Sequence record: PP400787
Source of the DNA: Escherichia phage FL23
Direction: 5' to 3' (one strand)
Length of the DNA stretch: 64,000 nt
The notes below the pieces were generated by a model that saw only the letters and a program-made list of their open reading frames with translations, made no database searches and was not told the origin of the DNA. This document shows positions 53,554-56,987 of this stretch, piece by piece. The position numbers and the translations under genes were made by a program. Position 1 is the first letter of the stretch, and each line of letters starts with the position of its first letter.

Positions 53554-53559
53554 TGATAA

Positions 53560-53574
53560 GGGGCTTCGGGCCCC
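53560..53574 (+). terminator. Hairpin downstream of the 197-aa ORF, possible terminator
   Basis: ggggc-ttcgg-gcccc stem-loop followed by a moderately T-rich stretch. Confidence 0.4.
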
Positions 53575-53595
53575 TATTACTTGGAGTAAATAGGA

Positions 53596-54204
53596 ATGAA
53601 AATGCAAAGTGATTTCAATTCAATGTTTGAAGAGTTTCAAAGACAGGTTGATGTTCCAGACCAATTACTAAATGCTCTTAAACGCATGGCAGAAGGACGT
53701 AATTACTATTGGGGGTCTTCATATGAAACTGATGAAAGCCTTTCCGGAAGATTTTCTAGAGGTAAAAAGTCTTTAATACGTCCTGGAATACTCATTAACA
53801 GTATTGAATCAATTCATTCATTGACGTGTGATTTTGATGTTGAATTTACTGATTTCATTTCTCCTGAATGGACGGTTTGTTATTTAAACGACGATTTTGA
53901 TTATCTCGGTGTTTATAGTTTAAGTGACGCATGGTTTAAACGTAATTTACAAAAGTCAAATTTATTTTATATTGATACTACTGTAAAATTTCAGGGCAAG
54001 AAATATTTCTTTACTCTTATAGTTGATTCTGAAACGAAGCATGAAAATAAACGTATTCTTAGTAAAAAGAATATCTTAACTATTGTTGATGATCTTTTTG
54101 ATAAATTTGTAGAAAATCCCAATTTTGAAAGTGATTTATTACTAGAAAAATTTGTTAAGGAATGTAGAGAATATGTCAAAGCCATCACTATACCTTCCAA
54201 GTAA
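53596..54204 (+). CDS. Hypothetical protein (202 aa) ending in the FVKECR junction motif
   Basis: ORF with SD ggag/aggaa; C-terminal ...EKFVKECREYV. Confidence 0.5.
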   Translation: MKMQSDFNSMFEEFQRQVDVPDQLLNALKRMAEGRNYYWGSSYETDESLSGRFSRGKKSLIRPGILINSIESIHSLTCDFDVEFTDFISPEWTVCYLNDDFDYLGVYSLSDAWFKRNLQKSNLFYIDTTVKFQGKKYFFTLIVDSETKHENKRILSKKNILTIVDDLFDKFVENPNFESDLLLEKFVKECREYVKAITIPSK

Positions 54205-54565
54205 ACCGTTGAAGTATGAATTAAAGCGTCAGATAATTTCTACTGATGTGTTAATAGGTCCTGTTATACTCATATCATTTGTAATTCTATTGATTATTGG
54301 AGGTGTTTTAGATGTTATGACTGATATTGATTCTGGCGAAATACTTGTGTTAATGCTAATTCTTCCATTAATAGTTCCACTTTTATTAGTACCCGTAAAT
54401 TGGGTAGGATACTGGTATCAAGGAAGGCATTATCGTAAACGCGTACGTGATTGGAAAGCACAGTGTAAAAAGATTAAAAAGGAACATCAGCTTAAACTTG
54501 CTGCGTATGAATTTGATGAAATTATGAAATTTGTTAAGGAATCACGATGCAAAAGCCAAAACTAA
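54173..54565 (+). CDS. Small membrane protein, paralog family member 1
   Basis: 130 aa from ATG 54173; two hydrophobic TM segments; C-terminus ...MKFVKESRCKSQN. Confidence 0.5.
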   Translation: MSKPSLYLPSKPLKYELKRQIISTDVLIGPVILISFVILLIIGGVLDVMTDIDSGEILVLMLILPLIVPLLLVPVNWVGYWYQGRHYRKRVRDWKAQCKKIKKEHQLKLAAYEFDEIMKFVKESRCKSQN

Positions 54566-54909
54566 ATAAAGTCAAATATTCGTTTTCTGAGTCATTTTTA
54601 ATTTTTGCTGTGGCGTTGGCTGCAGCTCTTGCAGGTAGTCTTTTTGGATTGTTAATTGACTGTCTTATTTTAAACATCGACGGCACAGTAAATATAACAG
54701 AAGTTTGGAGTGAGCTTTGTTATACTAAAATTATTTCATTGTTTTCATTCTTTGGTTCCATGTTATATTTTCATTATGATAATTTTAAAATAAATTGGCA
54801 AAGAAAAAAAGATTACAAAATACAATTAAAAGAATATAATAGCTACATGTCTTATATTGAAAATGAGTCAATGAAAGAGTTTGTGAGTGATTGTAGGAAA
54901 ATTAAATGA
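54547..54909 (+). CDS. Small membrane protein, paralog family member 2
   Basis: 120-aa ORF; TM segments; C-terminus ...KEFVSDCRKIK. Confidence 0.5.
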   Translation: MQKPKLNKVKYSFSESFLIFAVALAAALAGSLFGLLIDCLILNIDGTVNITEVWSELCYTKIISLFSFFGSMLYFHYDNFKINWQRKKDYKIQLKEYNSYMSYIENESMKEFVSDCRKIK

Positions 54910-55394
54910 TTTTAAAAACTCGCTGGTATGATTTAGATGATGGGGACGATGGCATTTCAGTTGATAGAGTTGACTGGAATGGTTGTTCCGAAGATATGAA
55001 AAATTTGTTGATTAGGGAGTTTAGAATGGGATATCAAGCAGCTAAGCCATTTACTGTAACAGATGATAAGTTCGTATGTATTCAAAACGGTCGCGCTAAG
55101 TTAACGAATGCTGATTGGTTCACAGATAAGAAGGTTCTTCTGTGGTATATCATTAGTCTTCCTATATCATCGTTCGTATTTTACTTTTTTATAAAAAATC
55201 CAATGGACAGAATAGGAGATTGGGTTCTTTTAACTATACTTGTTAATATTTTTACAGCAGCAGTATTATCAGGAATATGGCGTATGTTCATTGAAATGCC
55301 ATGGCGTTTACGCAGACAACAAAAGATTTTTGATGAAAAGAAATATACTCAAAATTTAAATAACTTTATCACTGAATGCAGGAAATTAAAATGA
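54906..55394 (+). CDS. Small membrane protein, paralog family member 3
   Basis: 162-aa ORF; TM segments; C-terminus ...NFITECRKLK; ATGA coupling on both sides. Confidence 0.5.
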   Translation: MILKTRWYDLDDGDDGISVDRVDWNGCSEDMKNLLIREFRMGYQAAKPFTVTDDKFVCIQNGRAKLTNADWFTDKKVLLWYIISLPISSFVFYFFIKNPMDRIGDWVLLTILVNIFTAAVLSGIWRMFIEMPWRLRRQQKIFDEKKYTQNLNNFITECRKLK

Positions 55395-55831
55395 AAACAC
55401 TATCAGCTGGTATTATCTTTATGACAGAAGATAAAGATTTATTTATGGGTCGGGTTACTGGTTCTCGTAAGCCTGGAATGATGGCACATCGCTGGGATAT
55501 TCCAAAGGGCCGCGTAGAAAGTTCTGATTTGAATGCACTGGAAGCTGCAAAAAGAGAATGCTTAGAAGAGACCGGTTTTAGCAATTATAATCCAGACCTT
55601 CTAGAAGACCTAGGTGTATTTAAATATTCTAGTAATAAAGACTTACAGTTATTTTATTATACGATTCCAGTAGAGCATGAGATGTTTAGAAATTGCCATT
55701 GCGAGTCTTATTTTGAAAATAAAGATGGCGTTATGATTCCAGAGATGGATGCTTTTGCTCTTATTCCTCGTACTCAGTGGCAATATGTGATGGGTCCTTC
55801 ACTTTACCGAATAATGAACAACCTCTTTTAA
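55391..55831 (+). CDS. nudE: Nudix hydrolase (NudE-like)
   Basis: Nudix box GRVESSDLNALEAAKRECLEETGF; start set at ATG 55391 (ATGA overlap with upstream stop, SD aggaaa) rather than the track's 55376. Confidence 0.75.
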   Translation: MKTLSAGIIFMTEDKDLFMGRVTGSRKPGMMAHRWDIPKGRVESSDLNALEAAKRECLEETGFSNYNPDLLEDLGVFKYSSNKDLQLFYYTIPVEHEMFRNCHCESYFENKDGVMIPEMDAFALIPRTQWQYVMGPSLYRIMNNLF

Positions 55832-56634
<803 letters not shown>

Positions 56635-56801: not shown

Positions 56802-56987
56802 ATGAAAATGTATCAAGAATTTATCGTTGAAGCAGATGCCAAAGGTCCTAAATTTAAAGTTAAAGCTTTCATTGGTGATGCGGAAGACTTTGGCTCATTA
56901 AAACGTAATGGGTATTCTTTCTTAGGTGGCGATGGTAAAGAAATCAAAACACCTATGCAAAACGTAGTGAAATTGCTTATGTTGTAG
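56802..56987 (+). CDS. Internal-protein-like capsid-targeted protein (CTS MKMYQEFIVE...), possibly truncated by frameshift
   Basis: 61-aa ORF with SD aagga; a second open frame 56939-57064 continues with protein-like sequence. Confidence 0.5.
   Translation: MKMYQEFIVEADAKGPKFKVKAFIGDAEDFGSLKRNGYSFLGGDGKEIKTPMQNVVKLLML

Follow-up and report, generated by a model that had tools for sequence, protein, structure and literature searches.

Relation to described systems of T4-type phages

Promoter-early stem-loop (PeSL) elements are known from T4-type phages (Arbiol et al. 2010, PMC2839356; Comeau et al. 2014, PMC4122927). The PeSL cassettes of RB49/phi1-type phages carry an intergenic early promoter and GC-rich stem-loop of about 100 bp, and pairwise recombination between copies excises or inserts ORFans (PMC2839356). 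The internal proteins (IPs) of T-even phages are unrelated to each other except for a shared terminal leader, which has a function in the protein (PMC12373910; PMC3012670), and conserved elements associated with them, built on T4 early promoters together with weak stem-loops, may keep shuffling within the locus, as related in PMC2839356, which draws on Repoila et al. 1994. Deletions between short homologies have also been described in T4 (Singer et al. 1982, as cited in PMC2839356). Here we analyzed a stretch of 64,000 nucleotides from Escherichia phage FL23 (sequence record PP400787; the whole stretch is hereafter called the window), in which four consecutive small genes, e.5, e.4, e.3 and e.2, located just upstream of nudE, encode a common C-terminal motif, h-x-x-F-[I/V]-x-x-C-R (h, hydrophobic residue), at their junctions. 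The best explanation overall is probably that these genes share a protein tail, the codons of which double as the Shine-Dalgarno sequence of the following gene, and that the junctions are passive crossover sites.

Like the PeSL cassettes, the e-array consists of small, variable, non-essential genes flanked by conserved short sequences in a hyperplastic region, and recombination of the flanking copies drops exactly e.2, leaving a chimeric copy and intact neighbours. In contrast to the intergenic PeSL, the repeat of the e-array is coding (the last 6-8 codons) and includes a Shine-Dalgarno sequence and an overlapping start, and its genes form one translationally packed block, whereas each PeSL cassette is transcriptionally autonomous. 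No promoter was found at the four junctions with a sigma-70-type scan, which is generic rather than specific for T4 early promoters (22 sites vs. 19.8 expected), and no stem-loop was found at the e.5/e.4, e.4/e.3, e.3/e.2 or e.2/nudE junctions, the only one being at 53556-53577.

As in the IP loci, where the conserved terminal coding segment and the expression signals are proposed to restrict cassette shuffling to the locus, small neighbouring genes with no other relationship have a single short terminal peptide in common, and the T-even IP loci are the closest conceptual parallel. However, the IP tag is N-terminal, cleaved and serves packaging, whereas that of the e-array is C-terminal and found on membrane and cytoplasmic proteins; no sequence relationship between the IP leader and the e-array motif was shown. 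The loss of e.2 through an AGGAAA core and a gene fusion in UFV11 through a short match in the first transmembrane (TM) helix resemble the short-homology deletions of T4 and are mechanistically nothing new. The difference is that the repeat in the e-array would be held in place by selection on protein and Shine-Dalgarno sequence, making the in-register event repeatable and harmless. The literature search gave no record of a shared C-terminal motif or tail homology, much of the T4 literature being outside its reach; as far as we found, the shared tail, its conservation across genera and its triple use are undescribed, the genes themselves being known T4 open reading frames (ORFs).

A common C-terminal motif in four consecutive genes

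According to the T4 annotation the gene order is e.5, e.4, e.3, e.2, followed by nudE and e (lysozyme). The array comprises the following coding sequences:

53596-54204, plus strand: e.5, 202 aa, soluble, motif on the C-terminal helix (ORF, T4 e.5, phrog_2607, AF2 model)
54173-54565, plus strand: e.4, 130 aa from the ATG, two predicted TM helices and a basic cytoplasmic tail (ORF, T4 match, hydropathy and charge)
54547-54909, plus strand: e.3, 120 aa, one strong and one weaker hydrophobic helix, predicted cytoplasmic tail
54906-55394, plus strand: e.2, 162 aa, a small N-terminal domain, two predicted TM helices and a long cytoplasmic helix tipped by the motif
55391-55831, plus strand: nudE (Nudix hydrolase), final cistron of the packed block (ORF, T4 match, family scan)

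The C-termini are EKFVKECREYVKAITIPSK in e.5, MKFVKESRCKSQN in e.4, KEFVSDCRKIK in e.3 and NNFITECRKLK in e.2, and the motif copies are located as follows:

54151-54168, plus strand: FVKECR of e.5 (TTTGTTAAGGAATGTAGA), with AAGGA at 54157-54161, 11 nt before the e.4 ATG
54530-54547, plus strand: FVKESR of e.4, with AAGGA at 54536-54540, 6 nt before the e.3 ATG, which the Arg codon CGA overlaps
54880-54897, plus strand: FVSDCR of e.3, with AGGAAA at 54895-54900, 7 nt before the e.2 ATG
55365-55382, plus strand: FITECR of e.2, with AGGAAA at 55380-55385, 7 nt before the nudE ATG

A six-frame scan of the 64-kb window for F[VI]x[ED][CS]R, a pattern set post hoc after seeing the sequences, gave four matches, all of them these four C-termini, compared to 0.46 on average and never more than 2 in mononucleotide shuffles of the window. 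The complete 168-kb genome of the relative HP3 has five six-frame matches, four of which are the same C-termini, and no other ORF carries the motif near its end. The original prediction, made from the sequence alone, that four consecutive genes end in a common motif is thus borne out by the scan, with e.5 as an exception in that its copy lies 11 residues ahead of the stop.

Because the pattern was defined after the fact, replication in other lineages is the stronger test. In the corresponding loci of Mosigvirus (Shf125875), Gaprivervirus (VR7), Kanagawavirus (PEi20) and phage LQ5, F[IV]xxC[RK] occurs within the last 20 residues of 11 ORFs, where about 0.05 would be expected, and all 11 lie inside the same e-array. 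A resemblance by chance among AT-rich, Lys- and Glu-rich C-termini, for which the shortness and post hoc definition of the motif might speak, is hardly credible given these counts (4 vs. 0.46 expected, all in consecutive C-termini, and 11 vs. 0.05 in independent lineages) and hhalign E-values of 1e-6 to 1e-8 between the tails; a chance origin of the shared ends is effectively refuted.

Conservation of the motif between genera

The core h-x-x-F-[IV]-x-x-C-R is kept, with differing codons, in orthologues and extra paralogues of Mosigvirus, Gaprivervirus, Kanagawavirus and LQ5. Among 19 genes from five lineages Phe is encoded by TTT or TTC, Ile/Val by ATT, ATC, GTT, GTG or GTA, Cys by TGT or TGC and Arg by AGA, AGG, CGA, CGT or CGC. 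The retention of the amino acids across genera with different codons argues that the motif is maintained by selection acting mainly on the protein. An exhaustive HMMER search with e.2 against 1.84 billion representatives returned 16 hits only. In full-length e.2 relatives, with 24-36% identity to the window protein, the F, I, C and R columns of the motif are invariant, and the residue before Cys is E, M or G; the long multi-stretch HMMER matches (P0063, P0069, P0071, P0072 and P0074) cover the middle of the query, residues 38-116, i.e. the end of the N-terminal domain and the first TM helix (TM1). The motif is also kept in the e.5 proteins of PEi20 and LQ5, though the next start lies about 25-37 nt past it and is served by another Shine-Dalgarno sequence. 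The 20 tails compared yield the consensus h-x-x-F-[IV]-(K)-(E)-C-R. Its hydrophobic positions i, i+3, i+4 and i+7 (h at -3, F at 0, I/V at +1, C at +4) form a stripe of the sort that lines one side of a helix.

The motif might instead be a capsid-targeting signal or a site for the prohead protease gp21 (L/I-x-E) related to the MKTYQEFIAE leader. Its xFIxE superficially recalls the EFIAE in the leader of the IP-like genes a short way downstream, and the IPs likewise have only the leader in common (PMC12373910; PMC3012670). The position of Glu is variable, however, being occupied by G, M, N or D in FIKGCR, FIKMCR, FIRNVR and FVSDCR, and it is Cys and Arg that are conserved instead. The gp21 protease requires Glu. 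The motif is also C-terminal and carried by membrane proteins, and we regard this reading as very improbable, the interpretation as a targeting signal or gp21 site being rejected for the lack of a conserved Glu.

An IP locus lies a few hundred bases downstream of the array, with genes past lysozyme at 56338-56634 and 56802-56987. Both start with the capsid-targeting leader of the T-even IPs, which in the latter reads MKMYQEFIVE, and the locus represents a second case in the same window of consecutive genes sharing a terminal peptide.

Junction DNA and the Shine-Dalgarno sequences

The stops and starts of the array overlap by 32 nt (e.5/e.4), 19 nt (e.4/e.3) and 4 nt (e.3/e.2, as ATGA, and e.2/nudE); nudE has an alternative upstream ATG at 55376. 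The following repeats are found at the junctions:

54148-54163, plus strand: exact 16-nt repeat AAATTTGTTAAGGAAT, copy 1, in the e.5 motif
54527-54542, plus strand: the same 16-nt repeat, copy 2, in the e.4 motif
54888-54909, plus strand: 22-nt junction repeat TGATTGTAGGAAAATTAAATGA, e.3 end and e.2 start
55373-55394, plus strand: 22-nt junction repeat TGAATGCAGGAAATTAAAATGA, e.2 end and nudE start, pairs with 54888-54909 in the natural loss of e.2

The 22-nt repeat is imperfect, TGA(T/A)TG(T/C)AGGAAA(A)TTAAA(A)TGA, and closes both e.3 and e.2. The junctions are therefore significantly similar, by hhalign as well as by the exact 16-mer and the 22-nt repeat, as had been predicted.

At all four window junctions an AAGGA or AGGA core made of motif codons is found 6-11 nt before the next ATG. 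It is formed by the K-E codons (AAG GAA) at e.5>e.4 and e.4>e.3 and by the R-K codons (AGG AAA) at e.3>e.2 and e.2>nudE. Such a core (AGGA, GAGG or AAGGA) precedes the ATG by 6-11 nt at 16 of the 18 junctions compared in the five lineages. Overlapping stops and starts with a Shine-Dalgarno sequence inside the upstream ORF are as expected of translationally coupled junctions, and the cistrons may be coupled accordingly. These cores draw on rare codons, since AAG accounts for 20% of Lys codons in the genome, AGG for 4% of Arg and GAG for 13% of Glu; at the variable third position of the motif, seven of nine Lys codons are AAG (vs. 20% genome-wide; binomial p=3e-4, uncorrected for phylogeny), and AGG or GAG occurs exactly where AGGA results at the correct spacing. 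Position and codon bias indicate that the motif codons have also been shaped as a putative Shine-Dalgarno sequence of the next cistron, because rare codons are placed where AGGA arises before an ATG. The overlap of the motif with the ribosome-binding site of the next gene, as originally proposed, thus applies to all four junctions, while the start codon itself is touched only at e.4>e.3 (CGATG). A reading of the junctions as sites for RegB (GGAG) was discarded, as the window junctions lack GGAG.

An alternative is that the junction is selected chiefly at the level of DNA or RNA, as a signal for translational coupling and a linker for cassettes, and that the peptide is its passive consequence. 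The exact 16-mer at two junctions, the 22-nt repeat at the other two and the rare codons that create AGGA are in line with this, as is the analogy to PeSL-mediated shuffling (PMC2839356). Nevertheless, between genera it is the amino acids and not the nucleotides that are conserved, the F, I/V and C residues add nothing to a Shine-Dalgarno sequence, the latter rests on K-E codons at some junctions and on R-K at others, and in e.5 of PEi20 and LQ5 the next start is about 25-37 nt off and has a separate Shine-Dalgarno sequence. We consider this alternative unlikely also after taking into account the recombination data presented below. The duplicated DNA junction unit of the original prediction is real with respect to the repeats and AGGA cores; as the primary cause it is not supported, the amino acids being kept while the codons diverge. 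The DNA-centred interpretation is partly supported, as something secondary to the conserved protein motif.

A further similarity of 19 nt (79% identity) was observed between the 5' coding ends of e.2 (54922-54940) and nudE (55406-55424), in different frames and with a spacing of 484 nt, in register with the junction repeats. By our own estimate (about p=0.05) it is at the borderline of chance.

Membrane topology and homology of the tails

Hydropathy analysis revealed two clear hydrophobic helices each in e.4 and e.2, one strong and one weaker helix in e.3 and none in e.5. The N-termini and tails are rich in K+R and the loops are acidic, from which an N-in/C-in orientation with a cytoplasmic tail is predicted; e.4, e.3 and e.2 look like two-helix membrane proteins of this topology. 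This agrees with the original description of the last three genes as membrane proteins, the second helix of e.3 being the weaker one. In the AF2 model of e.2 (predicted local distance difference test score, pLDDT, 75), which served for secondary structure only, TM2 runs on as a continuous helix to residue 161 with the motif at its end, and in the low-confidence model of e.5 (pLDDT 60.7) the motif lies within a C-terminal helix, 181-196. Foldseek comparison of the e.5 model with the PDB gave no match with E < 0.027 or TM-score > 0.23.

With hhalign, e.3 aligns with e.4 over 43 columns of the cytoplasmic tail (91% probability, E=1e-6) and with the C-terminal half of e.2 over 27 columns (94%, E=9e-8), the homology detected among these three proteins being limited to the cytoplasmic tail. 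The profile similarity of e.5 is confined to 11-14 residues (E=1e-4 to 1e-3), and PEi20 ORF137, a soluble protein of 96 aa, has the helix tip alone in common with the others. As e.5 and ORF137 share only the tip, the motif appears to act as a tag carried by membrane-bound and soluble proteins alike. The protein e.3 also matches the e.4 PHROG weakly over its full length (E=0.01), a weak full-length BLASTP match between e.4 and e.3 of VR7 (2e-4) was obtained in a tiny database only, and the N-termini are alike (MSKPSL in e.4, MQKPKL in e.3), also at the DNA level. It is very likely from these similarities that e.4 and e.3 are tandem duplicates, and e.2, ORF133c and ORF142 have the architecture and, at a minimum, the tail module in common.

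Such duplication raises the question of whether the motif is merely a relic of recent tandem duplication or gene conversion, without a specific role in protein or RNA. The similar N-termini of e.4 and e.3, the identity of the 16-mer within Tequatrovirus and hybrids such as that of UFV11, a product of ongoing unequal recombination, fit a relic. However, the remainder of the paralogues has diverged beyond recognition with the motif retained in at least four genera, it is kept in e.2 homologues at 24-36% identity, and the soluble carriers are otherwise without detectable similarity to the membrane proteins, all of which makes a mere relic improbable.

A 524-nt contig in ENA (P0073) contains an ORF of 83 aa in which the first approximately 62 residues resemble an unrelated soluble protein and the last 21 correspond to the e.2 tail with the motif; it may be an assembly chimera.

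Diversity, gene loss and crossover points

Among nine Tequatrovirus sequences the pairwise diversity is 0.10-0.15 in the TM-coding cores and 0.007, 0.000, 0.000-0.034 and 0.020 at the four junctions, which are the least variable DNA of an otherwise polymorphic array. For that reason they have served as sites of homologous or microhomology crossover, both in the loss of e.2 and in the exchange of TM-core alleles. An example of the latter is L007, in which a window-type e.4 core (40 consecutive informative sites) lies between flanks of the L005 type, with breakpoints at 54233-54265, at 54504-54586, an interval that holds the e.4/e.3 junction, and at 54874-54979, which holds the e.3/e.2 junction.

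A precise loss of e.2 was found in RB32 and ZN18, where e.3 ends in ...CRKLK, the e.2-type tail, and leads straight into the nudE ATG. The crossover is inside the AGGAAA of the 22-nt repeat, with an identical core of 6-9 nt, and after the excision e.3 is still in frame and nudE keeps its start. At least 53 records show the e.2-less junction, among them T2, RB32, RB33, PP01, PST and UFV-AREG1. Because other genera have e.2 beside nudE, or one gene from it, the absence of e.2 is taken to be the derived state. In e.3 of RB32 (L002 2647-2943) a run of 11 A, compared to 7 in the window (54803-54809), frameshifts the tail; this may reflect an error in sequencing or a tract that is genuinely prone to slippage.

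Not all rearrangements of the array take place at the junctions. In UFV11 (L013 2501-2821; the same protein as P0061) an in-frame e.4(1-31)::e.2(86-162) hybrid replaces e.4, e.3 and e.2, the crossover being at a short match in the first TM helix of both parents. The e.3 gene has decayed in some Mosigvirus sequences, with an internal deletion of about 250 nt in L010 (9880-10080), and in OLB35 (L019 3040-3800, an UNVERIFIED record) a duplicated segment of the e.4 tail is inserted in the e.3 tail; both were considered as motif-mediated events and found to be internal or complex instead.

The junctions would accordingly be favoured, harmless and non-exclusive crossover points used passively, rather than a dedicated recombination element, since rearrangements also occur elsewhere. 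Of the recombination linker that had been suggested, the part that stands is the placement of e.2-loss crossovers and allele breakpoints at junctions, whereas the events in UFV11 (TM1) and L010 (internal) lie outside them. The same data bear on a primary DNA or RNA element: the diversity minima at the junctions and the excision of e.2 precisely within the repeat, with e.3 frame and nudE start kept, would be expected from it, in contrast to the rearrangements at TM1 or internal sites. Recombination at the junctions would be a by-product of their conservation.

Proposed role of the shared tail

The shared protein tail can be put in a mechanistic context as follows. The genes e.4, e.3 and e.2, as well as those of the RB69-ORF133c and PEi20-ORF142 types, would encode small helical hairpins of the inner membrane with N-in/C-in topology, each with a basic cytoplasmic C-terminal helix that closes in h-x-x-F-[I/V]-x-x-C-R, and the soluble e.5 and PEi20 ORF137 would carry the same helix tip. 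The motif would form the hydrophobic face of this amphipathic helix and may provide a common cytoplasmic surface for docking or oligomerisation of the products of the locus. As stops and starts overlap in this dense arrangement, the purine-rich codons of the motif (AAG-GAA or AGG-AAA) may have been taken over to provide the Shine-Dalgarno sequence of the following gene, and the doubly constrained junctions would then serve passively as homology for unequal and allelic recombination.

Several points weigh against this explanation. The docking or oligomerisation role of the tail helix is purely what we infer, and no functional homologue was found in Pfam, NCBIfam or PDB (Foldseek E all >=0.027). 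Cys is replaced in e.4 lineages (by S or I) and in PEi20 ORF142 (by V). When the motif is trimmed, the hhalign probability of e.3-e.4 drops to 31% (E=5e-4) and the other pairs lose all signal, and common ancestry of whole genes is likely rather than proven, as the tail could be a shared module. The codon-bias test rests on related sequences, and the breakpoints can be resolved only to intervals without informative sites, which biases them to conserved zones.

A bolder interpretation is that the tail is a portable C-terminal address tag bringing a varying set of early proteins with no other relationship (two-TM membrane proteins, soluble e.5 and PEi20 ORF137) to one cytoplasmic partner or assembly, its DNA serving as ribosome-binding site and as crossover point for the gain, loss or exchange of cassettes. 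We consider this rather doubtful; if true, PeSL or integron-like shuffling would have an equivalent within coding sequence, and tag, frame and expression would automatically be preserved in each recombinant.

The genes e.2-e.5 are among the many T4 early genes without known function. A conserved cytoplasmic peptide common to at least four Tevenvirinae genera offers a bait for pull-down experiments and defines residues to mutate (F, C and R), and it joins into one family genes that are now split apart by PHROG and Pfam. The array would also be a clean natural case of triple use, as protein motif, Shine-Dalgarno sequence and recombination site, extending the idea of conserved linkers that organise the plasticity of hyperplastic T4 regions from intergenic promoter elements to coding sequence.

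Surrounding region and database annotation

In nucleotide comparison the 2.5 kb around the array match FL44 with 100% and T4 with 95.6% identity, and 513 phage records, nearly all Tequatrovirus, match the same region; by these matches the source of the window is a Tequatrovirus. The T4 counterparts of the four genes (NC_000866, NP_049738-NP_049741; DNA identity 92-100%) are early genes labelled 'hypothetical'. They belong to four distinct PHROGs families of unknown function, 2203, 2330, 2604 and 2607 (e.5 being phrog_2607), and precomputed Pfam tags on relatives are PF26876 (e.5), PF26873 (e.4) and PF26896 (e.2), for which no literature was found. Scans of e.5-e.2 and e.6 against Pfam-A and NCBIfam gave sub-threshold noise only, and those against PHROGs families of unknown function only; a PDB sequence search with e.5 gave no match. 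Searches for homologous proteins with e.3, e.5 and the tail profile returned close relatives or fragments only, and an IMG/VR scan with e.5 only six loci. Automated record labels call e.3/e.4 'sulfurtransferase' or 'DNA primase' and e.6 'host specificity protein', labels that have no backing from any of our family searches.

The packed block has a single strong hairpin, which marks its upstream limit, with the e.5 start 19 nt further on:

53556-53577, plus strand: GC-rich stem-loop GGGGCTTCGGGCCCC between e.6 and e.5

In the T4 reference e.2 is annotated with 102 aa, compared to 162 aa for the intact gene (T4 NC_000866 67476-67960; window 54906-55394). The T4 gene has two compensating frameshifts about 90 nt apart, and the tail with the motif is back in frame but severed by a stop. 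In other T4-lineage records e.2 likewise matches as two pieces.

Mosigvirus, Gaprivervirus, Kanagawavirus and LQ5 have a second tandem family, absent from the window, in the interval from e.3 to e.2 (L003 4231-5025; L011 2024-3283; L012 1729-2803 and 3143-3343; L014 3034-4073). Its neighbours are a DUF7277+DUF7275 protein of 318 aa and a conserved protein of 228 aa without a Pfam match. The family consists of three to five small acidic proteins, each ending in W(V/I/Y)(S/N/T)SSxxC-stop, and most of the stops are directly followed by a GGAA-type Shine-Dalgarno core and the next ATG.

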